A stretch of DNA of 64,000 nucleotides, from contig JBGAON010000003.1 in assembly GCA_044221725.1 (NCBI GenBank), positions 1 to 64,000 on the forward strand, read 5' to 3'. Position 1 is the stretch's first letter. The number at the start of each line of letters is the position of its first letter. The notes under the pieces were generated by a model. The model was not told the origin of the DNA. It worked only from the letters and a program-made list of their open reading frames with translations, and made no database searches. Position numbers and translations under genes: made by a program. Source of the stretch: Elusimicrobiota bacterium (GTDB taxonomy: Bacteria; Elusimicrobiota; Elusimicrobia; F11). Positions 1 through 16,631 of the stretch are shown here, one piece after another.

Positions 1-65
1 AACACCAACCGTATAGCCCCAGCTTTGAACTCATCCGTAAAAATCCGCCGCGGACGGCGGGACAT
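1..65 (-). CDS. IS3-family transposase OrfA, N-terminus (partial)
   Basis: Manual translation from ATG 65 gives MSRRPRRIFTDEFKAGAIRLV, matching the RRxF(T/S)xEFKxxAVxLV pattern of HTH_Tnp_1. Not in the ORF track because it is truncated. Confidence 0.8.
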   Translation of the reverse strand, partial: MSRRPRRIFTDEFKAGAIRLV

Positions 66-140
66 CTTCCTATCCTGTATTTCCATTGTGGACATCATAT
101 ACCACTCTCCTTATGTGTCCACCAAATCGGGTCAATCCCA
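1..140 (-). mobile_element. IS3-family insertion sequence, left end (element continues beyond window start)
   Basis: The minus strand from 140 reads TGGGATTGACCCGATTTGGTGGACAC, a TG-start IS3-type terminal repeat (115-140). An orfA start follows at 65. Confidence 0.8.
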
Positions 141-162
141 CAAGAGGCCATTTCATTCGAAA

Positions 163-185
163 GTGATGGCAGAGTGTATGGGAAA
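163..185 (+). repeat. Tandem arm-like motif pair GTG-ATGGCAGA / GTGTATGGGAAA
   Basis: Same TGTATGG motif as at 5381-5404, 8086-8109 and 9352-9375. The first copy has a 1-nt deletion. Confidence 0.5.
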
Positions 186-308
186 GCACAATGCAATGGT
201 CGCTGGGGTGCAGGTATTGATGGGGGGCGTACAGGCGTGCAATTGGTCTATGGTTATAGACGGAAATATGCGAACAAATTCCTTTTAGGACTATTCGGAG
301 GGCAATAT

Positions 309-728
309 ATGCGATTTGCAATAACAATAATTCTTCTAACGTTTTCTTCTGTATGTAGAGCGGAATCAAAGGCAGAAACCCAGATCAAAAATTCGTTCTT
401 AACTCTGAGTGCTTTTGAATGCTCGGCCATTGCTCCAAATGACAAAGAGATAGAGCGGCTATTCGTGCTCGGTCTAAACGCAGGTCGGGAATTCATCGCG
501 TATGCAAATTCTCATGCTGATACATATGGGAAGGAACTTCATCCACATGTTGCTGTCCTATGGAATTTGACTAGTGGGCCATCCCCTGATTTTATTCTGG
601 GGCAAATTTATGCTGATCGAGTGGACGATGTTTATAAACAAAAGGATCCGTTGTCAGATGATGCTGTTTGGAAAATCAAAAAGGAAAATATGTATCGGGA
701 GAAAAACTGCGCCTTGCTTGGTAGGTGA
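309..728 (+). CDS. Hypothetical exported protein
   Basis: Within ORF 174..728. ATG 309 gives a signal-peptide-like start MRFAITIILLTFSSVCRA. No family recognised. Confidence 0.6.
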   Translation: MRFAITIILLTFSSVCRAESKAETQIKNSFLTLSAFECSAIAPNDKEIERLFVLGLNAGREFIAYANSHADTYGKELHPHVAVLWNLTSGPSPDFILGQIYADRVDDVYKQKDPLSDDAVWKIKKENMYREKNCALLGR

Positions 729-776
729 AAAATTATCATTGGATATACCAGCTCCGTGACCAGGCTCTAAAAATTC

Positions 777-1703
777 ATGCCTACAAATAGCAAAGAGTCG
801 AGATGGTTCTTTTCTCCTAAACATGGATTGTTCCTGCCGATGAAGATTACAGACATGCAACGAAAAGGTATTGATTCCTTCGAAAGCATCGCTCTTGTTG
901 GCGAAAAAATGTTGGCATTTTTCCAGCAGCAGAATATCCAGGAGAAGGACGGATCCGATTTATCTAGTCTCGTTGCGAACTCGCGAAAGCTGGCAGACGC
1001 TTGGAAAAATAAATCAATTGCATCGGAACATCATGAATTGATTTGGGATTTGCTCACTATTCAACGAGTTGCCCCTGCTATTGTGTCGTTAGACGGCATA
1101 TCCGGCATTAAGCAACTTTTAATAAAGCTCGCTACAGGACCCTTAAGTATGAATCGACGTGAACCTTCGGTAGCTAAAGATACTTTTTGGGAAGTTGAAG
1201 TTTGGTATCGAGCAAAACGATCGGATTTGAACGCTGACTTAAAAGAGCCTGATGTTATTTGGCAGGAAGACGGGATGACAACCGGCGTTGCCTGTAAAAA
1301 GGTGTATTCCGAAAAAAACGTAAAAGATCCCTTATATAGAGCAACGGTACAGATTCGAAATTATTCTGGATTTGGTTTTGCCGCATTCAATTTGGACGAG
1401 TTAATTCCTCAAGGTCAAATGCTAGAGGTTGATCGCCCAGACGATACGGTGAAAGAGCTCAATAGGATTAATAGCGAATTTCTTCAAAGGCATAATGATG
1501 ATTTTGTTGAGCAGTTCGAAAATCAACGGGTTAGCGGGGCCCTTGTTAGCTGCTCATGTCTTGTGCACGCGCGAAGTGAAAACCTTTATTATCTGGGGAA
1601 TCAATGGAATATTTGGAGTCACCCAAAGTTAAATTCTGAACATAAAAACAGAATTGAACGATTCAAAAATGCTTTGCAGCAATCTTGGTCGAATAACCCA
1701 TAA
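777..1703 (+). CDS. Hypothetical protein, possible PD-(D/E)xK restriction-endonuclease-like fold
   Basis: 308-aa AT-rich ORF with FWEVEV...EPDVIW...GVACKK, resembling an E...PD...(D/E)xK arrangement with Ala at the acidic position. True start may be ATG 840. Confidence 0.55.
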   Translation: MPTNSKESRWFFSPKHGLFLPMKITDMQRKGIDSFESIALVGEKMLAFFQQQNIQEKDGSDLSSLVANSRKLADAWKNKSIASEHHELIWDLLTIQRVAPAIVSLDGISGIKQLLIKLATGPLSMNRREPSVAKDTFWEVEVWYRAKRSDLNADLKEPDVIWQEDGMTTGVACKKVYSEKNVKDPLYRATVQIRNYSGFGFAAFNLDELIPQGQMLEVDRPDDTVKELNRINSEFLQRHNDDFVEQFENQRVSGALVSCSCLVHARSENLYYLGNQWNIWSHPKLNSEHKNRIERFKNALQQSWSNNP

Positions 1704-1809
1704 GTTCTTCACAGAACCACATTTCTCCGTCGATGATTTGATAAGATTGCAATCCCTCAATAGCAACTCCCTCCGGTAAACAAATCTCCCCCTCCGAAAG
1801 GAAGGTCTC

Positions 1810-2343
1810 ATGAAAGCCATCGCAACATCAGCACATGTAGAGAAATTGATCCACGTAATCCGAAACCAAACCGTCATGTTCGATTCCGACCTGGCTAGGC
1901 TCTATGGAGTCACAACTGGCAATCTTAATCTTGCCGTCAAGCGAAATCGGGAACGCTTCCCCGCAGATTTCATGTTTGCGTTGACGGAAGTGGAGAGCAA
2001 ATCTTTGGTCTTGCAATTTGCAATATCAAACGGTCGGGGAGGACGGCGGACACCACCAAATGTATTCACGGAACAGGGCGTCGCTATGTTGTCATCGGTC
2101 TTGAACAGCCGTCGGGCCATTCAAGTCAACATCCAAATCATGCGGGCTTTCACCAGGCTTAAAGGATTTCATACCTCGTATGAAAATCTCCGCAAAGAGA
2201 TTCGAAAGATGCGAGGCAAATATGACAAGCAATTCGCGGTTGTTTTCGACGCGATTAATAGCCTTCTGGATGGTCCTAAAAAGCATTTCAAAATAAAAGG
2301 ATTCACTGAGTCGGCTTCGTCGAGGCCCCCGATAAAGGTGTAA
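1810..2343 (+). CDS. ORF6N domain DNA-binding protein
   Basis: IRNQTVMFDSDLARLYGV...AVKRNRERFPADFMF...GGRR..P..FTEQGVAMLSSVLNS is the typical ORF6N signature. Confidence 0.9.
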   Translation: MKAIATSAHVEKLIHVIRNQTVMFDSDLARLYGVTTGNLNLAVKRNRERFPADFMFALTEVESKSLVLQFAISNGRGGRRTPPNVFTEQGVAMLSSVLNSRRAIQVNIQIMRAFTRLKGFHTSYENLRKEIRKMRGKYDKQFAVVFDAINSLLDGPKKHFKIKGFTESASSRPPIKV

Positions 2344-2362
2344 TAGCACCATCAAAATCATC
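2342..2362 (+). repeat. 21-bp direct repeat, copy A (AATAGCACCATCAAAATCATC)
   Basis: 20/21 identical to 5323-5343. Confidence 0.75.
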
Positions 2363-2498
2363 TATATGATGCCGATCATATTGAGTTGACACTGCAAATG
2401 AGAACATCTTCATGAATTTAAGCACAGCGTTTGAAAATAGGTCCGTCCGGCCTGTCATGAACGGGGGTGCGCAAATTTTTAGATAGAAGGAGGGATTT

Positions 2499-4499
2499 AT
2501 GAAAAACAGAATCATTGGTTGTCAGCGGCAACTATTCATGCCTTTGATGGGATTCATAATGACGGCGCTGGCCCTAAACATACCCTATGTCATCGCCGCT
2601 GAACGTCCAAAACCGGCGGAGAAAACCACTCAAGAGGTCAATGCCCAGCTTTTTACAGAGCTTCCTTTCTCCGATAAGACCAGTTTTGAATTGGCCCATC
2701 GGGGATTCATAGCTCCGTTGTCGCCAGCGGTAATTAAAGGGAAGCAAGGCAACCCGATATGGGACCCCGCAAAGTACGCCTTTATTAAGGAAGGAGACAC
2801 GGCTCCGGCTACCGTGAACCCGAGCTTGTGGCGGCAATCCCAGTTGCTGAATATTTCAGGCCTTTTCAAAGTCACCGACGGTATATATCAAGTTCGCAAC
2901 CAAGATCTTTCCAACATGACCATCGTCGAAGGTAAAAAGGGGCTCACGATATTTGACCCTCTAATTTCTGTGGAAACGGCCAAAGCAGCGCTGGCCCTTT
3001 ATTTCCAACACCGGCCCAAGAAACCTGTTGTTGCGGTGGTCTATACGCACAGCCATGTGGATCACTATGGCGGCGTGCGGGGCGTTGTGGATCAAGCGGA
3101 TGTGGATGCGAAAAAAGTTGCCGTTTTTGCTCCCTCTGGTTTTTTGGAAGCCGCGGTGGCCGAAAACGTGATGGCCGGAACCGCTATGAGCCGGCGCGCC
3201 AGTTATATGTACGGAAACCTCTTGCCGCCCAGCCCCACCGGTCAGGTGGGAGCGGGTCTCGGCACCACGACATCCGCCGGCACGGTTACATTGATCCCAC
3301 CGACCGACATCATCGAAAAAACCGGCGAGATCCGCGTTATCGATGGATTGACGTATGAGTTTTTGATGGCGCCCGGGAGTGAAGCTCCATCCGAGATGCT
3401 GTGTTATATCAAGGAAAAGAAAGCGATCAACGCCGCGGAAGATGCAACGCACACGCTGCACAACACGTATTCGCTCCGAGGCGCCAAGATCCGCGATCCT
3501 CTGGCCTGGTCCAAATACTTAAATCAAGCGTTGAAGATGTGGGGAAACGAGGTGGAAGTGTTATTCGCTATGCACCATTGGCCAGTTTGGGGACAAGAAG
3601 CCATTGTGAAGCACCTGTCGCTTCAGCGGGATATGTATCGCTACATCAATGATGAAACGCTTCGATTGGCCAACCACGGTTACACCATGGACGAGATCGC
3701 AGAACAGGTACAGTTGCCGCAAGAAATTGCCAACCATTTTTCAAATCGCGGTTATTACGGGTCATTGAGCCACGACGTCAAAGCCACCTACGTTCTCTAC
3801 CTCGGATGGTTTATCGGTAATCCCGCAACATTGTATGTGTTGCCACCGGAAGAAGCATCAAAACATTATGTTGAGATGATGGGCGGCATGAAAGGGCTGC
3901 TCAAAAAAGCGAAAAAATCCTACGAGAAAGGCGAGTATCGCTGGGTCGCCGAAGTGGTGAACCATGCAGTGTTCGCCGATCCGAGCAATCAGGAGGCGAA
4001 AAATCTACAGGCCGATGCTCTTGAGCAGTTGGGGTACCAGTCAGAAAGCGGTCCTTGGCGTAATTTCTATTTGACCGGAGCCAAGGAGTTAAGAGAGGGT
4101 GTAGCCAAACTTCCCACGCCGAACACGTCGAGCCCGGATACGGTAAAGGCCATGAGTCTGGATCTGTTTTTCGATTTTCTGGCCATGAGACTAAATGGCC
4201 CGAAGGCAGCAGGCAAGCGCATTGTGCTGAATTTCGACTTCACGGATCTAAAGCAGAAGTACAGCCTCGAAATGGTGAATGGCGTGTTGAACCACACGGA
4301 GGGGTTGGAGGCGAAAAACGCCGATGCAACCATTACGCTGACGCGAGACACGCTGAATAAGATCGTATTGAAGGAGACCACGCTGACAGATGCAATAACC
4401 GCTGGGAGCGTCAAGGTCAAGGGCAGCGAAGGCAAGCTGGAAGAGATGCTTTCTTATCTTGATAGTTTCGACTTCTGGTTCAATATCGTTACCCCATAA
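2499..4499 (+). CDS. Alkyl/aryl sulfatase (MBL fold, SdsA1/YjcS family) with dimerisation and SCP2-like C-terminal domains
   Basis: THSHVDHYGG metal motif, HNTYSLRGAKIRD, NRGYYGS, a signal peptide and C-terminal FWFNIVTP. Confidence 0.92.
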   Translation: MKNRIIGCQRQLFMPLMGFIMTALALNIPYVIAAERPKPAEKTTQEVNAQLFTELPFSDKTSFELAHRGFIAPLSPAVIKGKQGNPIWDPAKYAFIKEGDTAPATVNPSLWRQSQLLNISGLFKVTDGIYQVRNQDLSNMTIVEGKKGLTIFDPLISVETAKAALALYFQHRPKKPVVAVVYTHSHVDHYGGVRGVVDQADVDAKKVAVFAPSGFLEAAVAENVMAGTAMSRRASYMYGNLLPPSPTGQVGAGLGTTTSAGTVTLIPPTDIIEKTGEIRVIDGLTYEFLMAPGSEAPSEMLCYIKEKKAINAAEDATHTLHNTYSLRGAKIRDPLAWSKYLNQALKMWGNEVEVLFAMHHWPVWGQEAIVKHLSLQRDMYRYINDETLRLANHGYTMDEIAEQVQLPQEIANHFSNRGYYGSLSHDVKATYVLYLGWFIGNPATLYVLPPEEASKHYVEMMGGMKGLLKKAKKSYEKGEYRWVAEVVNHAVFADPSNQEAKNLQADALEQLGYQSESGPWRNFYLTGAKELREGVAKLPTPNTSSPDTVKAMSLDLFFDFLAMRLNGPKAAGKRIVLNFDFTDLKQKYSLEMVNGVLNHTEGLEAKNADATITLTRDTLNKIVLKETTLTDAITAGSVKVKGSEGKLEEMLSYLDSFDFWFNIVTP

Positions 4500-4502
4500 T
4501 TT

Positions 4503-5282
4503 ATGAAAGGGAATTGCGGTGTCCTTTTGGCATTGGGTTTAACGCTGTTCGCGCCGGCTTGGGCGGATGAAAATAATGCCGCCCAAGCCAATAATCCATT
4601 GGCCAATATGGTGGCGTTCAACGTTCAGCAGTATTTCATCGGGGAACTGACTGAGTCCGACGAGTCGGCCAACCAGTTTTGGTTGCGTTATGCTCAACCG
4701 TTCCGCGCATTCGATGGGAACTGGCTGTTGCGGGCGTCTTTGCCTATTAATAGTTTCCCGACGGGACCAAATAAAACGGAAACAGGCATTAGCGACTTAA
4801 ACTTGTTCACGTCTTATCTGTTCGACACCGGCAATCCCTCCGTGAGCTTTGGTTTTGGGCCCCAACTGACGCTACCGACCGCAACCAATCACAATCTGGG
4901 TTCTGAAAAATGGTCTGCTGGCTTGGTGAACGTATTGTTCAACGCCAAATCGAAAATTGTTCAGTTCGGTTATTTGCTCACGTGGCAGGCGAGTTTTGCG
5001 GGAGAGGACGACCGCGCCGATGTGAACGTCGGGGCTTTCCAGCCATTCCTTTTTTATCAATTGGGTAAAGGGCGTTACCTGCGGGCAGCGCCGATCTGGA
5101 ATTATAATTTCGAGAACGATTCTTACGGTGTTCCTCTTGGTGTGGGTATTGGACAAGTGATTCCAATGGCCAAGACTGTTTTCAATGTTTTTGTGGAGCC
5201 CCAGGTATCCGTTGCGGACCGCGGCCCCAGTCAACCGCAGTGGCAGATCTTCTTCGGCTTTAATATGCAGTTCTTGAAATGA
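4503..5282 (+). CDS. Putative outer-membrane beta-barrel (ANNPLA-type family often found next to sulfatases)
   Basis: Signal peptide, AQANNPLA motif, amphipathic strands and C-terminal FGFNMQF. Starts 3 nt after the sulfatase stop. Confidence 0.7.
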
Positions 5283-5322
5283 AGTAGATGGCCTTGACGC
5301 TGATTATGGTTCAGTGGAATGC

Positions 5323-5343
5323 AATAGCACTATCAAAATCATC
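5323..5343 (+). repeat. 21-bp direct repeat, copy B (AATAGCACTATCAAAATCATC)
   Basis: 20/21 identical to 2342-2362. The pair brackets the sulfatase and barrel genes. Confidence 0.75.
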
Positions 5344-5380
5344 GGTACTATGGCAGGTAGGGGTCGATCATCGCCCCATT

Positions 5381-5482
5381 TTGTATGGGAAATTGTATGG
5401 GAAAAAGGGTGGTTTTCCGTCGATGTGTCATAGTCCGTGGGATGCGATTACGATGGTTCCTCGCCCTTCAACTGGCACATAA
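5381..5482 (+). repeat. att-like junction 1: TTGTATGGGAAA x2 followed by gene tail SPWDAITMVPRPSTGT*
   Basis: Perfect 12-bp tandem at 5381-5404. The core agt ccg tgg gat gcg att acg atg gtt cct cgc cct starts at 5432, 39 nt after the start of the second motif. Stop at 5480-5482. Confidence 0.75.
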
Positions 5483-5607
5483 GTGCAGTAACTCTTGACG
5501 GAAATGATGACCGTAAATGAGTCGCGATCATCAATGTTAAATTCTCCATGTCTCGCCTTATTTCAAGCGGGACAACCCCTCAAGAATATTGAGGAGGTAA
5601 ATCACAA

Positions 5608-6278
5608 ATGAAAAATCTCACAAAGAAAGTCGGTCACTTTAACCTTAAAGAAGCGCCTCACGGGAAGGGAGCTGATAAATTACTTCAAGACATTCGAGCT
5701 CTTATCGAAAGCGCCCGTCGACATGTTGCACGCGTCGCCGATTCAAGTTTGGTCATGCTCCATTGGCATGTGGGCAAGAGAATCCGTGAAGATATTTTGA
5801 AGGAGAAGAGAGCCGAATATGGAAAGGGAATAATTGCGACATTGTCGCAACGATTGGGATGGAGTCACTTTGTCGAATTATTGCCTATCGAGGACTCACT
5901 AAAACGCGATTTTTATGCCGAAATGAGCACCTACTTTTTTATCATCGGAAGCTCAGACGTCTGGTTGCCATCGAACTCAAACTGGACAAATTCAAAGCCG
6001 AGTTCAAAGGCCAAATGGAACTGTATTTGCGTTGGTTGACGAAACATGAACAAGAGCCGAATGAAGAACCGCCTCTTGGTCTCATTTTGTGCGCCGGGAA
6101 ATCCGACGAACAAGTGGAACTTTTGGAATTGGAAAAAAGCGGTATCCGCGTGGCGGAATATATGACGGAGCTACCGCCACGTAAGCTGCTCGAAAGAAAA
6201 TTGCACAAAGCCATTCAACTCGCGCGTGAACGGCTGGCTCTCGCCCAAAAACAATCGAATGAGCGGAAAAGAAATTGA
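5608..6278 (+). pseudogene. YhcG/DUF1016 PD-(D/E)xK nuclease pseudogene (internal deletions plus frameshift)
   Basis: The N-part (HWHVGKRI...RAEYGK...LGWSHFVELL...RDFYAEM) is in the frame of 5608. The C-part (LLFYHRKLRRLVAIELK...GQMELYLRWL...PPLGLILC) is in the frame of 5859. The central region is missing. Confidence 0.85.
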
Positions 6279-6361
6279 AACTTCACAAGGTGTCTGGGAA
6301 GTGAAACGTTCTCGATTCGCGCACCGGGCCGCTGCACGATTAACAAGATGGGGTCGAACAA

Positions 6362-6380
6362 CTGCCACAGGTTGTGGCAG
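6362..6380. promoter_or_regulatory. Perfect 8-3-8 palindrome CTGCCACA-GGT-TGTGGCAG, candidate operator
   Basis: Lies immediately upstream of the likely helicase start (ATG 6395 or 6401). Confidence 0.5.
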
Positions 6381-6394
6381 AAATAAATGACCAT

Positions 6395-8014
6395 ATGACG
6401 ATGGTTGGCTCCCAATCAAAGTTTGTCTCGACGGGCACATCCAGCCGCACATTGGAATGGACCGAAGCTTTTTCGCATGCCTTCGACCTGATGGAGAACA
6501 GCAACAAGTCCCTTTTCATCACAGGAAAGGCGGGAACTGGAAAGTCGACACTGCTTCAATATTTTCGTGACCATACGAAAAAGGAGGTGGTGGTTCTGGC
6601 TCCGACGGGTGTAGCGGCGGTCAACATTAAAGGACAGACGATTCACTCATTCTTTCGCTTCAAACCGGACATCACGCCTGAAAAAGTAAATTCCATCAAG
6701 CTCAACCGTCGACAAAAACTGCTTTATAAGAAAATCAATACGCTCGTGATTGATGAGATTTCGATGGTCCGAGCTGATCTGTTGGACTGTGTGGATCGTT
6801 TCTTACGCCTTCATGGCCGAACACCAAGTGCTCCATTCGGTGGTCTTCAATTAATTGCGATTGGGGATCTCTATCAGCTCCCTCCTGTTGTCACATCTCG
6901 CGAGCAGGATATCTTCCGCTCGTATTATGAAAGCCCTTATTTTTTTGATGCTCGTGTGTTCAGCACGAATGGCAATGGATCATCAGGGATCCAATTGGAG
7001 TTGGTGGAATTAGAGAAAATATACCGACAGAAGGACGACGTTTTCATCGGTCTCCTGAATGCAATTAGGAATAACTCAGTTCAACCAGACCATTTGAAAA
7101 TGTTGGACGCTCGTCTTCAGCCGACCTTCAAGCCCAAAAAGAGCGATTTCTTTATTTATCTCACCACTAAAAACGACATGGCGGATGCCATAAATGAAGA
7201 GCGATTGAGAGAACTTCCAAACGGGATTCATCGGTACGAAGGCCGAATAGAAGGTGAATTCGATCGCAAGAATTTCCCAACACAGGAGGTTCTGGAGCTA
7301 AAAGAAAGCGCCCAAGTTATGCTCTTGAATAACCATCCTAAGGGACTTTGGGTGAATGGCACCATCGGTGTGGTTCAAAAAATTCATAAGCATCAAGGAG
7401 AACCAGATTCCATTGAAGTGAAGCTGGCGGACGGATCAACGGCCTGGGTCGAGCCTTACACGTGGGAAATGTTTCACACCACCTTTAATGCCGAGCACGG
7501 GCGGTTGGAATCGGAAACGATCGGCAGTTTTACTCAATATCCGCTTCGCCTTGCTTGGGCGGTGACCATTCACAAAAGCCAGGGGAAAACGTTTCCGCGT
7601 GTGATCGTCGATATCGGCAGTGGGACGTTTTCCCATGGACAGGTTTACGTCGCTTTAAGCCGTTGCACCAGCCTGGAGGGACTCGTTCTCATCAAGCCGA
7701 TTTTGAAAAGGCATATTTTTATGGACTGGCGTGTGGTGCGTTTTATGACACGGTTCCAATACCGTATCTCAGATGAAGCCATGCCCTTGAAAAACAAAAC
7801 TGAAATCGTTGATAGAGCTATCCATGAGAAAAAAGATTTGGAAATCATTTATCTCAAGTCCAACGATGAGAAATCCCACCGGCGAATTCGGCCGGAGCGG
7901 CGGGGAGCTATGGAATATATGGGAAAAACCTTCGAAGGACTTGAAGCTTACTGCCACGAACGGAAAGAAACCCGCGTTTTTCGTCTTGACCGAATTCTCA
8001 AGATCTTAGGTTGA
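6395..8014 (+). CDS. Pif1/RecD-like SF1B helicase fused to a C-terminal WYL domain
   Basis: Helicase motifs GKAGTGKS, DEISM, GDLYQLPPV, PLRLAWAVTIHKSQG and GQVYVALSR. The tail AIHEKKDLEIIY...RRIRP...EAYCHERKETRVFRLDRI is WYL-like. Track start is GTG 6374. Confidence 0.88.
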   Translation: MTMVGSQSKFVSTGTSSRTLEWTEAFSHAFDLMENSNKSLFITGKAGTGKSTLLQYFRDHTKKEVVVLAPTGVAAVNIKGQTIHSFFRFKPDITPEKVNSIKLNRRQKLLYKKINTLVIDEISMVRADLLDCVDRFLRLHGRTPSAPFGGLQLIAIGDLYQLPPVVTSREQDIFRSYYESPYFFDARVFSTNGNGSSGIQLELVELEKIYRQKDDVFIGLLNAIRNNSVQPDHLKMLDARLQPTFKPKKSDFFIYLTTKNDMADAINEERLRELPNGIHRYEGRIEGEFDRKNFPTQEVLELKESAQVMLLNNHPKGLWVNGTIGVVQKIHKHQGEPDSIEVKLADGSTAWVEPYTWEMFHTTFNAEHGRLESETIGSFTQYPLRLAWAVTIHKSQGKTFPRVIVDIGSGTFSHGQVYVALSRCTSLEGLVLIKPILKRHIFMDWRVVRFMTRFQYRISDEAMPLKNKTEIVDRAIHEKKDLEIIYLKSNDEKSHRRIRPERRGAMEYMGKTFEGLEAYCHERKETRVFRLDRILKILG

Positions 8015-8085
8015 GCGATCAGCTATTACTGCAACCGCAAATATTGACGGTGCAATAACGGAGATTCATGAAAAAGGCTCAAAAC

Positions 8086-8181
8086 TTGTACGCCAGTTTG
8101 TATGTCAAATGGGGTCGTTTCTCAACGGAAGCATACTGTCCGTGGGACGCTATCTCCATGGTTCCGCGCCCTCAACCCTGA
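8086..8181 (+). repeat. att-like junction 2: TTGTACGCCAGT/TTGTATGTCAAA followed by gene tail YCPWDAISMVPRPQP*
   Basis: Tandem 12-mers at 8086-8109. The core tgt ccg tgg gac gct atc tcc atg gtt ccg cgc cct starts at 8137, again 39 nt after the second motif start. Stop at 8179-8181. Confidence 0.75.
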
Positions 8182-8208
8182 AAATTACGCCTGAGCGGCT
8201 CGGATTAG

Positions 8209-8244
8209 AAAAACTTAAGGACGGTTTTTGCGCCTAAGTTTTTT
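8209..8244. terminator. Probable bidirectional intrinsic terminator
   Basis: Imperfect hairpin AAAAACTTAAGG...CCTAAGTTTTTT with A and T tracts, between junction 2 and the convergent HTH gene. Confidence 0.5.
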
Positions 8245-8277
8245 GTCGCCTTAGCTACGTCCCCGCCATGTTGAATG

Positions 8278-8769
8278 TTACCGCGCCCACGGCGTTCCGA
8301 TTTTTACCGCATCCAGTTGCAAGGCTTTGGCGATTTTGAGCAGCGTTGTGCGCTGAGGCATGGAACTAGAATTAAAGAAGCGAGAAAGGGACGGTTGGGG
8401 GATGCCGGTTAATTCGGAAAGACGTTTCACCCCGCCGGCTTTGTCCACTTCCACCAAAAGAGAATCTTTAAAGGCGCGAATGTCCTTTGCTACTGATTCC
8501 AAGTCATTGAAGCGAATATAAGGGCCCTCTTCTTTCTCTTGTTTCGCACAATCATCGATCATGTCCTGGATGTCAGCGACAATTTCATCCCGCTCTTTGT
8601 TATCAGTCTCGTTGATCCAGAGTTTCATGAGATCATAGACGCCCTCGAATTCGGTGGCGGTGTTCACTGCGGCGGCAATGAATTCGGCCGAGAGGCCGCT
8701 TTTTTTCATCGCTCCAGCGATTTCATACAGTTCCATTTGAAGGGTGGGGGCCAGCGCTTGGTTTTTCAT
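8278..8769 (-). CDS. XRE/Cro-type HTH protein, putative antitoxin with N-terminal extension
   Basis: C-terminal GGVKRLSELTGIPQPSLSRFF...TLLKIAKAL helix-turn-helix. Overlaps the upstream gene by ATGA. Confidence 0.75.
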   Translation of the reverse strand: MKNQALAPTLQMELYEIAGAMKKSGLSAEFIAAAVNTATEFEGVYDLMKLWINETDNKERDEIVADIQDMIDDCAKQEKEEGPYIRFNDLESVAKDIRAFKDSLLVEVDKAGGVKRLSELTGIPQPSLSRFFNSSSMPQRTTLLKIAKALQLDAVKIGTPWAR

Positions 8770-9143
8770 GATAATCTCCCTCGCTCGGTGAATCGACCGA
8801 GACGAATCAATTGCAAATGAGTTTTAAATCGAGCCAACATGCGGGCTTCTTTCTTTGGATCCAGTTTCACGTAGGCCTCACACAAATACGCCATTCCGAG
8901 AAGTCCAACTGGAAGGCGGATTTGAACCTTTCCATTTCCCATTTGATGCCACTTCATTTTGTACCCGTCCTGAATTTCCGGCGACCAAAAATTGTCCTGA
9001 GAAAATTTCGGATGGTTAGGATAAACCTTTAAAAGCAACACATCGGGCCGAATTTTTCCGCGATACTCCTGGGCCGAAAACGCACCCTCCGCCTTCAACT
9101 CCAGATAGGAATTCAAGCCCCACTCTGTGATAACGATTTCCAT
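8766..9143 (-). CDS. Putative RelE/HigB-like toxin
   Basis: About 125 aa, basic. The tail IRLPV...YLCEAYVK...EARMLAR resembles RelE/Gp49-like tails. Toxin-first order, coupled to an HTH gene. Track start is 9155. Confidence 0.5.
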   Translation of the reverse strand: MEIVITEWGLNSYLELKAEGAFSAQEYRGKIRPDVLLLKVYPNHPKFSQDNFWSPEIQDGYKMKWHQMGNGKVQIRLPVGLLGMAYLCEAYVKLDPKKEARMLARFKTHLQLIRLGRFTERGRLS

Positions 9144-9181
9144 GCCTATCTCCACTTGGAGGGATCTGTTTTACTCTTAGT

Positions 9182-9199
9182 TAACATATATAACATATA
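9182..9199. promoter_or_regulatory. TAACATATA x2 direct repeat in the toxin/HTH promoter region
   Basis: Perfect 9-bp tandem about 40 nt upstream of the toxin ATG; candidate autoregulatory site. Confidence 0.35.
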
Positions 9200-9351
9200 T
9201 ACCTTAATTTCAAGGCCTTATTTTTGAGCTGAAATATAAAGCTGTTTTGGTGTCATTCCCTGGGAAGCGGCTTGTTAGAATTGCCATCATGTGACTGCAC
9301 CATCGAATTCTGTGGCAAAGATAGTGACACATGCCGAATTGGAGTGAAAAA

Positions 9352-9644
9352 GTGTATGGCAGAATGTATGGCAAGGTTTTGAAAAACGCGCTTTGCCTGA
9401 TAAAACTCTCGCCATTAGTGAGAGAAATAAAAATCCCAGCATTAGGTGATAGCACCCCCGAAAGGTAAGTTGAACATTTCAGATAGACTGCTTTGGAATG
9501 AAATCACTTGTATGGCAAAATGATGCGATGTTTCAGAAAATCGTTTCGAAAGAGTTGAGAGTGATTCGATATCAAAAATGTTTCTGTCCGTGGGATGCGA
9601 TCACGATGGTTCGCGTCCCATTTTGTGGCAATCACGCGTTGTGA
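9352..9644 (+). repeat. att-like junction 3: GTGTATGGCAGA/ATGTATGGCAAG, TTGTATGGCAAA, then gene tail FCPWDAITMV
   Basis: Motifs at 9352-9375 and 9508-9519. The core tgt ccg tgg gat gcg atc acg atg gtt is at 9585-9611. It is followed by cgcgtccc, which is PRP (ccg cgt ccc) with one C deleted. Confidence 0.72.
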
Positions 9645-9709
9645 CTCAAATCGGAAACCTCGCCTGTGACGGGTTGATTTTCGCGCGTTCACCGGTACGC
9701 TTGTAACAA

Positions 9710-10245: not shown

Positions 10246-12255
10246 ATGTCATTTGCCAAAAAAGGTTCAAGCGGAGATACCGCCGCTGGTGCGGGCTTGG
10301 ATTGGGTAAACAAATATTATCAGTCTCTGTTCTCCAGCATCCTTGCGGGAGCCGCCATTCTCTACGCATGCTTGAACCCGCTTTTCCGGACGGGTTTTTT
10401 TAATGACGATGCGATCTACGTGATCGTGGCCAGAAAATTGTGGAGAGCAGCGGAGGAGTACCCGCATCTTGGCATCAAGCCAGATTACCCTCTTCCCGGC
10501 TTGCCGTTGATTCTGGCGCCTTTGGCACGAATTGTCGCGCCCCAATGGACACTTTTGGAATGGTTGTCGGTCATGGCAACGCTGTTGTCCGCTTTCTTTC
10601 TTGGACGATGGATCCGGAAATGGTTGTCGGCAGCAGAAACGCTGGCGGTAATGGCCCTCTATGCCTTCAACCCGGTCGTCGCAAAGTTTTCGGGCGTTGT
10701 TATGCCGGCACCCTATTACACGTTATTTTCGGTCGCCAGTTTTTTTCTGCTCAGTAGGCTTTTGGAGAAACCCAGTGCCTCAAGCGCGATGATGTTGGGA
10801 TTTGTGTTGGGGTGGGGAAGTTTGGTTCGTCCCGAAGGGATCTTGCTAGTGATCAGCGTTTTGGCCGCTTTGCTCCTCGCGCATTACCGGAAAGATTTGT
10901 TGCTAGTGATGATGGTCCCGTTGTTGGGTTGGTTGCTGTTCGTTCTGTTTTGGTTTCAGTCTCAGCGAACCTTGGGTTCGGAATTTGGGAAAGATCTTCG
11001 GGCGTTGGTCGCCTACTGGATCGAGAATTTTGTTCCTGGCATCGCGTTCTCGGTTAACCTTCCAAAGGTTTTTCTTTTCGACACGTGGTGGGCGTTGCGA
11101 TTTGTTCCGATGTTTGTCGCAAACCTCTTTACCGTGGCGTTTATGCTGGTCTCTTCGGTGGCCGCTTTGATTGGCTTTCGGGCTCTGTGGCGAGATCGTT
11201 CAGCGAATCAAATCACTCTTTCGGCGGTCGGCTTATTTTGTGTGTCCTATTTTCTGATTCATGTGTTTTGGCATGTCGCTTTGCCAAGATATTTTATCCC
11301 ACTCTTTCCGTTCGTTCTCATTATCGTTATCCGCGGAGCCAGCAAGATTCGATTTTTTTCCGACCGCCACCACGGATGGGTGATGACGTTAACCTTGTTT
11401 GTGCTTTTCTGTACCTACGCGTACGAGAACGGATACGGAATTTATCAGGCGCTCGTCGTGCGACAACCGATGAACGCCCCTCCGTGGCGGAGCATCGAAT
11501 GGATCAAACAGCATGTGGGCGTCGATGCCAAAATCACCAGCAATATTGAACCGAGCATTGAGTTGTACGCGGGCCGGCACGCGGTTCATGGGATCAACGC
11601 GACAAACGCGGACCTGTATTTCTATCTTCTGATGAAATTCGACGTTGACTATGTGGTTTACCGGCAATTGGATACGGTCACTCCCGGCGTCGGGAACACG
11701 GTCGACCCGAATATTATGTTGGCCAGAAAAATCCGTTGGTTTCGAATGTATCCCGAACGGTTCAAAACGGTTTTTTTTGATGCTCACGAGCGGACGCGCG
11801 TCTGCCAAATTGGCGATGACGCCGATTACAGAAAAGCTTTTGAAAAATTTATCGATGCGGTCCGAAAATTTGACACCGGCCGCTATGAAGATGCTTTCGA
11901 TTCGGTGAACGCGGCGCTGGCAATCGAACCAAAGCTCGGATGCGCGCAAAATCTTTTGGGTGCTCTGATGCTCATCAGAGGTGATTCAATAAACGCCGAA
12001 CGCGCCTTTCTGAAAGCTGCCGACGACCTTCCCGATTCTCCGAATTCGCAGCTCAACTTGGCCACGTTGTTTTACAAACAGGGAAAAGTTGAACGTTCGG
12101 AAGCGTGCTTGGAAAAGGTCCTGCAAGTGGCCAAAGCGAACGGCGAGGAGGCGGAATTTATGCGAACGATCAAAACGCTGCGCACCAAATGGTCGCGCGG
12201 AGGCGCCACGCTTTTCATTGATTCACCATCTCCCGAAACGTATCAACAGATTTGA
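10246..12255 (+). CDS. GT-C fold (ArnT/PMT-like) membrane glycosyltransferase with C-terminal TPR
   Basis: FNDDAIY acidic loop after TM1, about 11 hydrophobic segments, VRPEG, RYFIPLFP and TPR-like helices (AQNLLGAL, QLNLATLFY). Confidence 0.75.
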   Translation: MSFAKKGSSGDTAAGAGLDWVNKYYQSLFSSILAGAAILYACLNPLFRTGFFNDDAIYVIVARKLWRAAEEYPHLGIKPDYPLPGLPLILAPLARIVAPQWTLLEWLSVMATLLSAFFLGRWIRKWLSAAETLAVMALYAFNPVVAKFSGVVMPAPYYTLFSVASFFLLSRLLEKPSASSAMMLGFVLGWGSLVRPEGILLVISVLAALLLAHYRKDLLLVMMVPLLGWLLFVLFWFQSQRTLGSEFGKDLRALVAYWIENFVPGIAFSVNLPKVFLFDTWWALRFVPMFVANLFTVAFMLVSSVAALIGFRALWRDRSANQITLSAVGLFCVSYFLIHVFWHVALPRYFIPLFPFVLIIVIRGASKIRFFSDRHHGWVMTLTLFVLFCTYAYENGYGIYQALVVRQPMNAPPWRSIEWIKQHVGVDAKITSNIEPSIELYAGRHAVHGINATNADLYFYLLMKFDVDYVVYRQLDTVTPGVGNTVDPNIMLARKIRWFRMYPERFKTVFFDAHERTRVCQIGDDADYRKAFEKFIDAVRKFDTGRYEDAFDSVNAALAIEPKLGCAQNLLGALMLIRGDSINAERAFLKAADDLPDSPNSQLNLATLFYKQGKVERSEACLEKVLQVAKANGEEAEFMRTIKTLRTKWSRGGATLFIDSPSPETYQQI

Positions 12256-12292
12256 TGAGATCCCCAGTGAGCCGAACGTTCGTGGAGCAATT

Positions 12293-14644
12293 ATGAAACC
12301 TTTGCGGTTATCCATCGCAACCGCTCTTCTGTCGCTCAGTTTGTTGTTGTGGGAAATTCTTCTCACGCGGCTTTTTAGCGTGCTGCTCTATTATTACTTC
12401 GCTTTTGTGGTTTTGTCGCTGGCCATGCTGGGGCTCACGGTCGGAGCGATATCGGTTTTGAACGCCGATGTCCCGGAAGAAAAACTTCCGATGGTCTTGG
12501 CGCGGCACGCTCTTTGGACCAGTCTCGGAATGATGGTGGGGATTTTCGCGGTGGTTGGTCTCGGTGCGACAATAACGTTGCGGAGCGCCGTGGGGCGAAT
12601 GATTTTGTTGTTTGCCTTATCATTCCCTCCTTTCCTGTCAGCAGGAAAATTTCTTTGTTTGGTTCTGAGCAGAAAAAAGAATATTTCCCTGTTTTACGCC
12701 GCGGACTTGTTCGGCGCCGCGTTGGGATGTCTTCTGGTGGGAGGACTTCTTTTTTATTTCGGCGGGGCCGGTGCGATTTGCGCAGCCGCGGTTCCTGCGG
12801 CTGTTGCTTCGGCGATTTTGTCGAAACGGCGAAATTTCTGGCGGATATCGATGATCGGGCTCGTCTGTATCGGTACGCTTGTTCTTGCAAAAAACCCGAG
12901 TGGGCGTTTTCAATTGCATTCGGGAGCGGGGTATCCTCCGACACGCCCGCTTTTTGAACGTTGGAATGCTTTTTCGCGAATCGCGGTTTTCAAATATCCG
13001 ATCTCATTGAATTGGGGAATTTCACCTCTGCTCGATAAGACGTTCCCGCCCGCGGAGCAATTGCAACTCGAGGTGGACTGTGGTTCGATGACGCCACTCA
13101 CCCGTTTTGATGGAAACGTGGAAAGGCTGTCCTATTTGAAGAAAGACATCACGGCTTTCGCGCACTATCTGCGCCCGCGGAGCAAGGTGCTGATTATTGG
13201 GCCCGGCGGTGGACGTGACGTTTTGGCGGCGCTTGTTTTCGGCCAGCCCGACATTCGCGCCGCGGAAATCAATCCCGCCATTATCGAAGCGGTGAATGGT
13301 CGCTTCGGCGATTTTACCGGACATCTTGATCGGTTTGCGAACGTGCGATTCGTGAACTCCGAGGGCCGAAATTATGTCGAGCGTTCGCATGAACTCTTCG
13401 GAATTATTCAGCTTTCTCTGGTCGATACCTGGTCGGCCAGCGCCGCGGGTGCTTATGCTTTTATCGAAAACGGGCTTTATACCATCGAATCGTGGAAATC
13501 TTTGTTGTCTCATTTGGCGCCCGGCGGCGTGCTGTCATTGACACGCTGGTACTACGCATCGGAACAGTGGCCCGTTCATATTTTCCGGGCCTGTGTGTTG
13601 GGCATGGAGACGCTTCGCCAGATGGGCGTTTCTTCTCCCGAGCGTTGTATTGTGGTGTTGCGATTACCAAAAACACAACCCGACCGATCGTACGTCGGAA
13701 CGGTCATGATTTCACCGCAGCCTTTTACAGAAAATGATTTGACCGTTTTGGCCAACGAATGCCGCGCCTCCGGCTGCGAGATTGCCTACAGCTGGAAAAC
13801 AGCTGCGGATTCTGTTTTGGCGTTATTGATTCAATCGTCTGACTCCGCGGAATTTATTTCCACATTTCCACTGGATATATCGGCTCCCACGGACGATCGA
13901 CCGTATTTCCAATTTCATGACCGACTTTTTTCCAATGGCGATCGAGTGCCGTCCGAGAACAAGCAAGTAACGCCCGGTGGGTACATTCTAAAACTGTTGC
14001 TTTTCGTTGTTGCGATTCTGAGCGTGTTGTTGATCGCGGTTCCGGCCGTCATTTTGATGCGGCGAAAAGCCGTCTGGTCTCGAGAAACCGTGGCTTTTTC
14101 CGGCTATTTTGCGCTGATCGGACTGGCCTACTTCTTTGTTGAGTTGGCGTTGATTCAACGGTTCGGTCTGTTTCTCGGGCATCCAAGTTATGGGTTTACC
14201 GTGATTTTGTTTGGCCTTCTTTTTTCCAGTGCTTGCGGAAGCGTGATTTCCGACAGGCTTCATCCGAAATGGGCGGCCGCCATTCTTGTTGCTGCGCTGG
14301 CGCTTTTCCCTGTTGCGGGGGTTTCCGTCTTGTCGGTGGCCTCGAACGCCGGCGTGTTCACCCGAATCGTGCTAACGCTTGTCTTTGTGTGGCCGCTCGG
14401 TTTTCTTATGGGGACTTTTCTGCCGTGGGGATTGGCCGCCGCGCAAGTTCGTCAAGCGCCGTTCGTCCGTTGGTATTGGGCGGTTAATGGAGCCATGTCC
14501 GTTTTCGGTGCTGTTCTTGGAATGACGTGTCTCATCGCGTTCGGCGAGGCACGCACGCTTTCGTTGGCCGCTGCTTTTTATGCGGTCAGTGGAATTATTT
14601 TAATTCGCTTCATGGGAGAGGAACGACGACATGCCACGAATTGA
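12293..14644 (+). CDS. Polytopic membrane protein with a central class I SAM/dcSAM-binding (spermidine-synthase-like) domain
   Basis: N- and C-terminal TM bundles; LYAADLFGAALG, IIGPGGGRDV, AEINP, SEGR, SLVDTW and PTDDRPYF. ATG 12293 preferred over track start 12089. Confidence 0.8.
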   Translation: MKPLRLSIATALLSLSLLLWEILLTRLFSVLLYYYFAFVVLSLAMLGLTVGAISVLNADVPEEKLPMVLARHALWTSLGMMVGIFAVVGLGATITLRSAVGRMILLFALSFPPFLSAGKFLCLVLSRKKNISLFYAADLFGAALGCLLVGGLLFYFGGAGAICAAAVPAAVASAILSKRRNFWRISMIGLVCIGTLVLAKNPSGRFQLHSGAGYPPTRPLFERWNAFSRIAVFKYPISLNWGISPLLDKTFPPAEQLQLEVDCGSMTPLTRFDGNVERLSYLKKDITAFAHYLRPRSKVLIIGPGGGRDVLAALVFGQPDIRAAEINPAIIEAVNGRFGDFTGHLDRFANVRFVNSEGRNYVERSHELFGIIQLSLVDTWSASAAGAYAFIENGLYTIESWKSLLSHLAPGGVLSLTRWYYASEQWPVHIFRACVLGMETLRQMGVSSPERCIVVLRLPKTQPDRSYVGTVMISPQPFTENDLTVLANECRASGCEIAYSWKTAADSVLALLIQSSDSAEFISTFPLDISAPTDDRPYFQFHDRLFSNGDRVPSENKQVTPGGYILKLLLFVVAILSVLLIAVPAVILMRRKAVWSRETVAFSGYFALIGLAYFFVELALIQRFGLFLGHPSYGFTVILFGLLFSSACGSVISDRLHPKWAAAILVAALALFPVAGVSVLSVASNAGVFTRIVLTLVFVWPLGFLMGTFLPWGLAAAQVRQAPFVRWYWAVNGAMSVFGAVLGMTCLIAFGEARTLSLAAAFYAVSGIILIRFMGEERRHATN

Positions 14645-16631
14645 AAAACCAAATTGGGTTGAGCGGTGTTACAAAACGATCTTCTATTCGATCATAGCGA
14701 CCGCGGCGATGCTGTATGTGTTCCTTAATCCGCAGTACAAGACCGGCATTTATAACGACGACGCGGTTTATGTGATTGCCGCGCGAGATTTGTTGAACAC
14801 ATCCGGGTTGTTCCCTCAAATAAAACCCGATTATCCTTTGCCCGGATTACCGCTGTTGCTTTTCCCTTTGGCCAAGCTCGTCGATCCGTATTGGAATTAT
14901 TTGGAATTGTTGTCGAGCTTGGTGACGGTGTTGTGCGTCTATTTGATCGGAAAATGGACCCGGAAATGGCTGTCGCCAGGCGAATCGCTGGTGGTTGTTT
15001 CGTTGTTTGCTTTCAATCCGGTTGTCTGTAAATACTCCGGCGTTCTTATGTCCGAACCGTATTATTTAACGGCTGTTTTGGGGAGCTTCCTGTTGCTAAG
15101 AGGATTCCTCGACGAAGCGACCGTCCCGAAAGGTTTGGGGCTCGGCTTTCTGTTGGGATGGGCGAGTCTGCTTCGGCCCGAGGGAATCGTGGTGTTGATC
15201 TGTGTTGGTGCCACCGTGATCGTGGCCCGCAAAAAAAACACGCGTGTCGGTATCGTGATGATCCCGTTGATTTTTTGGTTTTTCTTGTTGGTCATGTGGT
15301 CTCTAACGCGTTCGTCGGGTCACACGGAGTTCGGCCGCGATATCACTTCTCTCATCAAATACTGGCCTCAACATTTCGCTTCGGAAGCACGTTTTACGTT
15401 TAAATTCGCACGGGTTTTGTTCATCAATACGGTAATGGCGCTACAAATTCCTCCGCACCCGATTTCGTTCTATGTTCGTTTCGCGATAATCGTCTGCTGC
15501 CTGGCGGGACTGATAAAGGGGTTCCGCGGTGTATGGAGGGAAAATACGAACGAACACGCCGAGCTTCTGGCCGTCGCCTTGTTCTGTGGCATATACTTTT
15601 TGATCCATTTGTTTTGGCACGTTGCCATCCGCCGCTATTTCATTCCTATTCTGCCGTTTGTTCTCGTCTTCATGACCCGCGGGTTTGCGGAAATCTCTGC
15701 GCACGTGAGAGAGCGAAGAAAATGGATGCGGCCCGTTTTTGTCTTTTTGTTTTTTGTTCCGTATGTGGTCAGCAATTCCTACGCGGTCTTCGAGACGTTT
15801 GTCGCTTTGGATCCGATGAAATCCCCGCCGCTTCGGACGCTTCAGTGGTTGAGAGAAAACACCGCTTCCGGAACAAAGGTGTTTAGCATCATCGCGCCGA
15901 ATGTCTCTCTGTACGCAAAAAGGTTCGCAACATGCGAAGTGAACGTCAATAGGGCCGAAGAATTTCAGTTGTTTTTGATCCGCAACTCCTTCGGATATAT
16001 TGTTGACCGAGAAGTGGAGTTGGTGGCACCCACCGTGGGCTCGACCATAAATCACAACAAGGGGTGGGCTCGCATTCGTAAGTGGATTCATCAATACCCA
16101 CACCGATTTCAGCCGATTTTCTCTGATGCCTCGGAGCGGACAAACATCTATCGCGTTATTCCCGATGATCGGTTTGTCCGAGCGTACGAAAAGTTTAACG
16201 AGGCCTCTCGCCATTACGCGACCGGCGATTATGAACAAGCCTATTGGAAGGTCAGCGAATCGCAGGCGATTGACGCCGACATCGGAACCGCAGCGAACTT
16301 GCTGGGAGCGCTGTATCTCATGGCGAACGATTCTGCAAACGCGGAGCGGCTTTTCCGAAGGGCCATGGCGCTCGATCCGGATTTTCCGCTCCCGATGGTC
16401 AATCTGGCGACGGTTTATCATCGGAATGGAAAAAATGAGAAGGCACTCGAATACATAAAAAAAGGATTGGAAATCAGCAAATCGAATGGGGAGGAAAAAG
16501 CCTTCAATCAAAATATTCTGAAACTGCAGCGGCAGTGGGATCAGGGGAACGCCATGCTTTTCATTGATTCACCCTCGTCCCGCGTTGGGAAAGAATCCAC
16601 CGATCGGCGCAACGGGCGGAGGCGTGCGTAG
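14631..16631 (+). CDS. GT-C fold membrane glycosyltransferase with C-terminal TPR (paralogue of 10246..12255)
   Basis: Shared blocks: NDDAVY, IKPDYPLPGLPL, RKWLS, AFNPVV, RPEGI, FWHVA, NLLGAL and LFIDSPS. Confidence 0.75.
   Translation: MPRIEKPNWVERCYKTIFYSIIATAAMLYVFLNPQYKTGIYNDDAVYVIAARDLLNTSGLFPQIKPDYPLPGLPLLLFPLAKLVDPYWNYLELLSSLVTVLCVYLIGKWTRKWLSPGESLVVVSLFAFNPVVCKYSGVLMSEPYYLTAVLGSFLLLRGFLDEATVPKGLGLGFLLGWASLLRPEGIVVLICVGATVIVARKKNTRVGIVMIPLIFWFFLLVMWSLTRSSGHTEFGRDITSLIKYWPQHFASEARFTFKFARVLFINTVMALQIPPHPISFYVRFAIIVCCLAGLIKGFRGVWRENTNEHAELLAVALFCGIYFLIHLFWHVAIRRYFIPILPFVLVFMTRGFAEISAHVRERRKWMRPVFVFLFFVPYVVSNSYAVFETFVALDPMKSPPLRTLQWLRENTASGTKVFSIIAPNVSLYAKRFATCEVNVNRAEEFQLFLIRNSFGYIVDREVELVAPTVGSTINHNKGWARIRKWIHQYPHRFQPIFSDASERTNIYRVIPDDRFVRAYEKFNEASRHYATGDYEQAYWKVSESQAIDADIGTAANLLGALYLMANDSANAERLFRRAMALDPDFPLPMVNLATVYHRNGKNEKALEYIKKGLEISKSNGEEKAFNQNILKLQRQWDQGNAMLFIDSPSSRVGKESTDRRNGRRRA

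Follow-up and report, generated by a model that had tools for sequence, protein, structure and literature searches.

Phage-type elements and integrase-less cargo units in tandem behind a ferredoxin gene in an Elusimicrobiota bacterium

The stretch of DNA analyzed here (the window) comprises positions 1 to 64,000 of contig JBGAON010000003.1 from an Elusimicrobiota bacterium (GCA_044221725.1; genome G000), in which it forms the start of contig C5. Near its left end, short cargo units are separated by three copies of a sequence, hereafter the core, that encodes the C-terminal peptide of a ferredoxin. An earlier sequence-only reading of the window had described these copies, predicted a ferredoxin gene ending in the same peptide beside a tyrosine recombinase to the left of the window, and suggested that the segments between the copies could be an integron-like, trans-mobilized array of defence cassettes. 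Its description of the copies was confirmed, including the 39-nt spacing of the second motif upstream of copies 1 and 2 (motifs at −51/−39); the copies follow one another at distances of 2705 and 1448 nt, and over 35 nt their identity is 83%. A scan of the whole genome identified five cores, all at a single locus, which correspond to one intact gene and four tails, and five shuffled cores gave no match at ≤6 mismatches and 0–1 at ≤8. The empty control at ≤6 mismatches, together with the single locus, rules out both chance and a dispersed repeat of the repetitive extragenic palindrome or miniature inverted-repeat transposable element (REP/MITE) type. The predicted gene was found on contig C2, to the left of the window, with a tyrosine integrase gene 2.2 kb behind it (Table 1). 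Tail copy 1 differs from the intact gene by three synonymous and no non-synonymous changes over 11 codons and copy 2 by five synonymous changes and one non-synonymous change, and copy 3 is frameshifted; the three window copies are displaced 3′ tails of the ferredoxin gene situated on C2. As judged from its sequence, the first cysteine motif of this ferredoxin lacks the usual fourth Cys before Pro, and the protein may bind an atypical set of clusters.

The interruption between C2 and the window coincides with a mobile element. Positions 2–140 of the window are identical to C1:1–139, and the final 160 nt of C2 open with the matching inverted terminus; a 3-nt target duplication can be read from the sequence. 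The termini suggest that the element at window 1–140 is the end of an insertion sequence (IS). A left attachment (att) end runs through C2:332923–333203 up to the IS and resumes at window 139: a query with the left-end class La matched C2 over its positions 1–280 (89%) and the window over its positions 276–401 (80%). A contig of sequencing run X5, from another study, carries the C2 letters directly before window 139 and represents an IS-free allele. The IS termini, the resumption of the left end and the IS-free contig together place C2 and the window in one array, with the order ferredoxin gene, 30.4-kb element, unit A (~5.4 kb), unit B (2.7 kb) and unit C (1.4 kb). The array does not start at 5381, as had been supposed; the unit ending at copy 1 begins at the fourth tail, on C2, and the first 5.4 kb of the window is the cargo of unit A.

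Both ends of unit A are present, with the IS cutting through the left arm region in G000. Its second module is 76% identical over 2.65 kb to C12:54259–56896 of a congener (G002), where the module lies between other end classes. In unit B, the left end is cut after ~65 nt and the YhcG gene is in two pieces (DUF1016_N and YhcG_C); the start of this left end is 80–85% identical to left ends of G001, G005 and G007, over only 62–70 nt. In unit C, left arms are absent and the right side consists of two incomplete ends, with arm-type motifs at −233/−221 and −77 before copy 3, and its orphan right-end part is 82–87% identical to G002 ends of class RB. These two units, which are the segments flagged in the sequence-only reading, are the more decayed part of the array and look like relics, not free cassettes; since they lack left arm pairs, they are poor candidates for independent excision. 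The earlier cargo calls stood for YhcG, Pif1-WYL and the helix-turn-helix (HTH) gene; the proposed toxin (129 aa) has no Pfam match and yields only a Gp49/RelE-like lead. A switch to housekeeping genes after copy 3 was not borne out, as many genes past this copy are homologous to element cargo in G002 and in another relative, G036. Copy 3 was also considered as the original host tail and was ruled out, as it continues as a left end of class Lb. Directly past it, window 10246–16631 encodes an 851-aa membrane protein between two related glycosyltransferase-TPR membrane proteins.

Table 1. Features of the ferredoxin-associated array in G000 (coordinates refer to the window unless prefixed C2; ORF, open reading frame; PWM, position weight matrix).
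Feature	Position	Strand	Remarks
Intact ferredoxin gene	C2:302195–302470		91 aa; 4Fe-4S dicluster Pfam matches; ends in the predicted peptide
Core positions (first G of core)	C2:302427 (inside intact gene), C2:332881, window 5433, 8138, 9586		All in the same orientation
Integrase gene	C2:304707–305735		PF00589
Putative IS end	1..140	.	Interrupts left att end of first unit, breaks assembly
Distal part of class-La left end	139..263	+	Arm pair 164/175; continues C2:332923–333203
Unit A cargo, first module	309..2343	+	Two ORFs without assignment, ORF6N (PDC-S05-like) gene
Lone extra motif copy of right-end inner border	2339..2371	+	Repeat D10; genome's top PWM score
Unit A cargo, second module	2499..5282	+	Alkyl sulfatase (Pfam) and 259-aa protein
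Class-RA right end	5320..5432	+	15-6-15 inverted repeat at 5320, arm pair 5382/5394; 80% to G002 RA ends
Att core, tail 1 and truncated class-Lc left-end start	5433..5504	+	No left arm pair
Unit B cargo	5608..8014	+	Split YhcG (PDC-S02-like), Pif1-WYL helicase; no backbone match
Class-RC right end	8027..8137	+	Arm pair 8087/8099; 77–80% to G005 C114 right end
Att core and tail 2	8138..8181	+	No left arms after it
Unit C cargo	8278..9155	-	Candidate toxin (Gp49/RelE-like lead only), HTH antitoxin-like gene (HTH_3, HI1420)
Orphan distal part of class-RB right end	9264..9390	+	Inverted repeat at 9290, arm pair 9353/9365; no own core
Single arm motif at −77	9509..9517	+	Degenerate right end of unit C
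Att core, frameshifted tail 3 and truncated class-Lb left-end start	9586..9649	+	80–83% to G002 C12 Lb ends over 65 nt
15-6-15 sites in window	5320–5355, 9290–9325, 2339–2374		Also in G002 right ends; resemble recombinase/repressor site

The 30.4-kb element between the ferredoxin gene and the tail at C2:332881 carries a restriction-modification pair, the tyrosine integrase, a terminase large subunit, a primase/helicase, a second, XerD-like recombinase and cargo. No match to the head genes of the G001 element was found in it; with an integrase, a primase and a packaging gene and without a full head set, it is satellite-like. The earlier suggestion of trans-mobilization was not supported in this respect: the enzyme is encoded in cis, in this proximal element of the same array. 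Its catalytic residues R191, K221, H281, R284, H307 and Y316 are invariant in all seven aligned integrases. In the structural model, the N-domain is predicted as three strands and a helix at residues 4–50 (predicted local distance difference test, pLDDT, 69–89), and the best fold match of the model is full-length lambda integrase; a Pfam search with the N-termini of four integrases returned a single weak match (E 0.14). IntI4 was the second phmmer match, best over residues 258–323 of the catalytic domain. In a phylogenetic tree, 12 integrases formed one clade (support 100/99), which was separate from three tRNA-linked relatives and from a viral outgroup on a long branch; the clade consists of the integrases beside ferredoxin sites and a homologue on G030 C69, a contig that shows no core.

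Three further features touch this element. Elsewhere in G000, at C3:98300–138400, lies another prophage of this backbone family that is more complete (terminase, portal-like, protease, major head and XerD-like module). It has no ferredoxin cores, is located within a few kb of a tRNA-Gln gene and is a candidate helper for the satellite-like element. A non-coding block of 120–270 nt beside the XerD-like module (C2:313590–313900; L001:17590–17900) is 83–93% conserved among the large elements and the C3 prophage and is absent from the short units; it is possibly an origin, a packaging site or a regulatory site. A 115-nt direct repeat (89%) in the 30-kb element (L002:7751–7865 and 11909–12023) also occurs in G002 elements before a cyclase-like gene and is possibly a structured leader.

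Strong ferredoxin homologues were identified in 22 of the 41 genomes searched, and eight of the 41 contain at least two core copies. In the 80 loci read from an all-species scan, tails with arms or a cognate integrase were seen in Elusimicrobiota, the phylum to which the closest tail matches also point; what matched in other phyla was for the most part a lone intact gene or a chance similarity. The congener G002 has 14 cores (three on C2, 10 on C12 and one on C23): behind its ferredoxin gene lie three phage-like elements, one of 64 kb, one of 89 kb and one of 22 kb or more, all of which encode an integrase of their own; these are followed, in the order in which the contigs appear to join, by nine consecutive integrase-less units of 1.5–30 kb, one of which (30 kb) contains a 2955-aa ORF (C12:78193–87060). 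Integrase-bearing elements are proximal to the gene and integrase-less ones distal in both G000 and G002. Among 26 stretches examined, 18 closed units gave no tblastn match to integrase or backbone (queries: the backbones of G000 and G001 and two G036 integrases) and eight gave a match; the eight include a 4.5-kb unit in which an integrase was the sole match and, after the final core of G002, a fragment of an integrase. All 18 integrase-less units are bordered by cores on both sides, and in G000, G002 and G036 such units stand in tandem with an integrase-bearing element and have an intact cognate integrase in cis. Donor elements carry terminase, protease and major head genes. The content between the tails varies widely among relatives, as the sequence-only reading would have it; its label of defence cassettes proved too narrow, the cargo, found on both strands, including not only restriction-modification, AbiE, DarTG, YhcG and toxin-antitoxin pairs but also stress and metabolic genes (alkyl sulfatase, catalase-peroxidase-like, nitroreductase, superoxide dismutase, zinc uptake and TonB genes).

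In the att ends, arm repeats come in pairs, the left-hand pair near +280 and the right-hand pair at −48 or −75. In the integrase-bearing elements, sequence comparison places a putative left pair in 5/5 and a right pair in 4/5, and left-arm repeats lie ~275–290 nt behind the core at all six ferredoxin loci of the family. Arm pairs at both ends were scored in 8/18 integrase-less units (window 139–5432 and seven units in relatives) and in four of the five integrase-bearing elements; one or both ends lack a pair in the other 10 of the 18, and 43 and 30 of 5000 random windows scored. Left and right end classes mostly pair within units (La with RA in four units, Lb with RB in three of four), and arm columns are more invariant than spacers, with 14/17 against 38/108 invariant columns in RA and 24/25 against 95/150 in the RB ends of four integrase-less units. 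Two integrase-bearing elements of G002 (C2:22037 and C23:665) have a variant core in common, which is changed at several positions where the overlap region begins and suggests a variant att site. At the border facing the cargo, RA and RB right ends open with a conserved, imperfect 15-6-15 inverted repeat (mean of 7.35/15 matches at a spacer of 6, compared with 2.4–4.5 at other spacers; 17 sites), which, on the tentative reading of cassettes moved in trans considered below, could be a second site for cargo exchange. The lone border motif inside unit A is probably the scar of a fused unit. Action of the XerD-like recombinase on the 15-6-15 site was considered and is unsupported, as the C3 prophage has the gene and no high-scoring site.

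In other families, the ferredoxin is extended at its C-terminus, and a replacement of 73 codons comes with each element. Among 13 orphan 73-codon tails examined, 11 are full-length, one of them with an in-frame insertion, and two, both in G023, are truncated; the insertion (54 nt; G030 C54:5303, L096) leaves the frame open. The ratio of non-synonymous to synonymous substitution rates (dN/dS) ranges from 0.047 to 0.246 for 15 pairs among six orphan tails of one family and from 0.04 to 0.62 over all 46 pairs with a synonymous proportion (pS) <0.6, and the median of the uncorrected ratio (pN/pS) is 0.36 over all 136 pairs. For the short tails, pN/pS is 0.064 in comparisons, not independent of one another, of 19 sequences with the G000 gene, a set that includes five intact genes and leaves out four frameshifted or degenerate tails. 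The orphan tails are under purifying selection; the selection at the protein level that had been proposed is seen in the synonymous-rich differences in the window and in the low dN/dS in relatives.

The arrays are likely to have arisen by serial integration of phages and satellites at a ferredoxin attB, followed by loss of the backbone and retention of cargo and of one or both att ends, with mobility mainly by co-excision. Stacking of elements at such a site was already part of the sequence-only reading. The target gene, the integrase, the tails, the arms and the map of units, together with selection on the tails and variation in content, are seen directly in the sequences; the crossover point, the order of events and any recombination activity are inferred as follows. 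We read the small ferredoxin gene as the attB of temperate phages and phage-satellite-like elements with a lambda-type tyrosine integrase, and the crossover would take place at about the last Cys codon, because identity begins there. The attP of each element would comprise a right arm, the core, a replacement 3′ end of the gene and a left arm, such that integration would restore the ferredoxin protein and displace earlier residents away from the gene. The residents would then lose the integrase and the phage backbone, often through one large deletion between two cargo zones, after which the cargo and one or both att ends would stay. Units with both arms could in principle be excised or re-integrated by the integrase of a neighbour, and one-armed units (window 5433–8137 and 8138–9585) would leave only with the upstream element, that is, by cis-mobilization. 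The low dN/dS of the tails fits this mechanism, since each tail would be tested whenever its element adjoins the gene. Decay is visible in the split YhcG gene, the frameshifted tail 3, the integrase fragment of G002 and the two truncated G023 tails.

Several observations weigh against serial integration and decay as a full account. The gene-adjacent unit is integrase-less in G023, G027 and G409, and no cognate integrase was found in these three genomes, in which the best matches (36–38%) are tRNA-linked; only the G023 unit (7.8 kb) has both arm pairs, in a genome that is 99% complete and whose best integrase match is 36% and tRNA-linked. No empty site was found within the family, where 6/6 ferredoxin loci are occupied; the predicted junction of the gene with the DNA after 9644 was not found, and the genes downstream of copy 3 are not syntenic in five relatives. 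Apparent empty sites were seen only in other families (G014, G024, G037 and G020), with neighbour genes named from their translations. None of the 18 closed integrase-less units contains an integrase or backbone fragment, which pure decay explains poorly, and the left ends of units without an integrase group in two supported clades, into which none of the eight integrase-bearing ends sampled falls. No circle, attP junction or core-to-core joint was found in the contigs of four runs, although contigs drop rare variants; a joint of 2360 to 5412 in run X18, with a 27-letter side and a depth of 2.2, was too weak and was not used. Run X5 covered bins up to 5642 with few differences and gave no cover further on, which was not counted as evidence. 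A search of IMG/VR returned no phage contig with a tail or a close integrase and one distant integrase. The arm seed list was derived from the arms themselves, so that the arm counts are descriptive and biased upward, and the tails were found with a peptide-based pattern, which biases towards conservation and raises counts.

The lack of backbone debris in any of the 18 units and the separate clades of left ends would fit dedicated non-autonomous cassettes, with La-RA and Lb-RB chassis that pick up cargo, are moved in trans by phage integrases and spread between species; this is a tentative possibility that we consider doubtful overall. The trans-mobilized cassettes of the sequence-only reading are poorly supported for the two segments that it flagged, both of which lack left arms, and may hold for the both-armed units. 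Such units would be heritable, att-only lineages that exchange cargo and cycle beside the ferredoxin gene by means of the integrases of passing phages, a proposal to be held with reserve. Between G000 and G002, the La ends of units without an integrase share 89% identity, as compared with 70% for the host ferredoxin genes (180 nt), and the cargo is unrelated, and the integrase-less clades (La 100/97 and Lb 100/99) extend across species, each with one member of unclear status. The predominant pairing of end classes, the invariance of arm columns in RA and RB ends and the retention of both arm pairs, at the offsets of integrase-bearing elements, in 8/18 units as compared with ≤1% of random windows also favour such lineages, as do the module found in two different chassis and the both-armed unit beside the gene in G023, a genome with no close integrase. 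However, the sample comprised only eight left ends of integrase-bearing elements, and the closest neighbours of the La clade include La-like ends that do have an integrase (G002 C23 and G004). The same unit was never found twice, whether at two positions or in two genomes, and the units lack the conserved non-coding block and packaging genes and have no evident route between cells except as passengers. If such lineages exist, they would amount to integron-like gene capture evolved from lambda-type att sites on a protein-coding gene, and cycling next to the gene would keep the replacement tails under selection.

It is unlikely that every short unit is only an inert relic, a dead prophage remnant whose arms and tails appear conserved because decay was recent. 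The many half-sited units, the IS in a left arm, the frameshifted or truncated tails and the absence of excision from the contigs of the four runs are consistent with relics, and rapid, large deletions of the phage core that keep useful cargo are described as common (PMC13626063). Against this stand the 8/18 units with both arm pairs in register, the intact cognate integrases in cis in G000, G002 and G036, and the 18 units devoid of backbone fragments. A true integron or a dispersed REP/MITE repeat is very improbable, for although short gene packets lie between repeated sites with a tyrosine recombinase upstream and IntI4 among the leading phmmer matches, there are five copies only, all at one locus, the sites are gene tails with direct arm repeats across ~450 nt, the cargo is not co-oriented, the integrase matches lambda integrase over its full length and has an N-terminal arm-type domain rather than being of IntI type, and two promoter-like sites were counted as against 4.9 in shuffles, so that the integron-like array of the earlier reading lacks the hallmarks of one.

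Serial integration with backbone loss has several parallels among known systems. In the lambda Int/att system, a three-domain integrase is paired with a short core that is flanked on either side by direct and inverted arm repeats. The ferredoxin-associated elements resemble it in the three-domain integrase (by fold match), the core and the arm repeats, and differ from it in the additional 15-6-15 inverted repeat at the inner border of right ends. In streptococci, cis-mobilizable elements (CIMEs) accrete in tandem at the 3′ ends of fda, rpsI, rpmG and rplL as integrase-less cargo units of 1–13 kb between att sites, in tandem with integrase-bearing elements (PMC7563491; PMC5704250), and the most decayed units lie farthest from the gene (PMC7563491). 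The integrase-less units of G000 and G002 are similarly att-bounded, tandem and distal to integrase-bearing elements. In contrast to CIMEs, the donors here carry phage head and packaging genes and not known conjugation modules (relaxases and type IV secretion systems were not searched for), the target is internal to a ferredoxin gene and calls for replacement tails of 13–73 codons, and the integrase-less ends form cross-species clades; the composites described for S. salivarius consist of two or three elements, as compared with nine integrase-less units in a row in G002.

Other islands share parts of this architecture. Dehalococcoides ssrA islands (PMC3146451) likewise lie in tandem behind one gene, many of them without an integration module, but have a tmRNA target, a serine recombinase and 20-nt repeats where the present arrays have a protein-coding target, a tyrosine integrase and arm arrays. 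Among tycheposons and elements like phage-inducible chromosomal islands (bioRxiv 10.1101/2020.12.28.424599), newcomers push older elements inward and leave partial target copies, and integrase, primase and packaging modules accompany the cargo; tycheposons have tRNA targets and an integrase lineage of their own, whereas the target here is a protein gene (the two integrase lineages were not compared), several donors carry complete head-gene sets, and the att ends of integrase-less units are in register. The dusA-associated integrases (PMC4482086) are tyrosine integrases of prophages and islands that act at one protein gene, apparently restored, and target its 5′ end, unlike the ferredoxin 3′ end and long tandem stacks described here. 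The general mode, in which islands grow by tandem integration at the 3′ end of a gene, is thus already known; new here are the use of a ferredoxin gene as the target, with replacement tails that reach 73 codons, the phage-type donors, the length of the stack and the clades of integrase-less ends. Literature searches returned neither an integrase family that targets ferredoxin genes nor arrays of this kind in Elusimicrobiota, although site tables in supplements could list the target.

These results add a new integrase family and its target from a phylum that has received little study, and the att sites are mapped in enough detail for testing. The protein-coding tail is a built-in record that tRNA targets do not offer, and its dN/dS can show whether the lineage of a unit has lately served next to the gene; in this way it becomes possible to test if islands without an integrase are dead remains or passengers still in circulation. 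The G002 array would extend well over 250 kb if its contigs join as they appear to, and this single site may supply much of the accessory genome.

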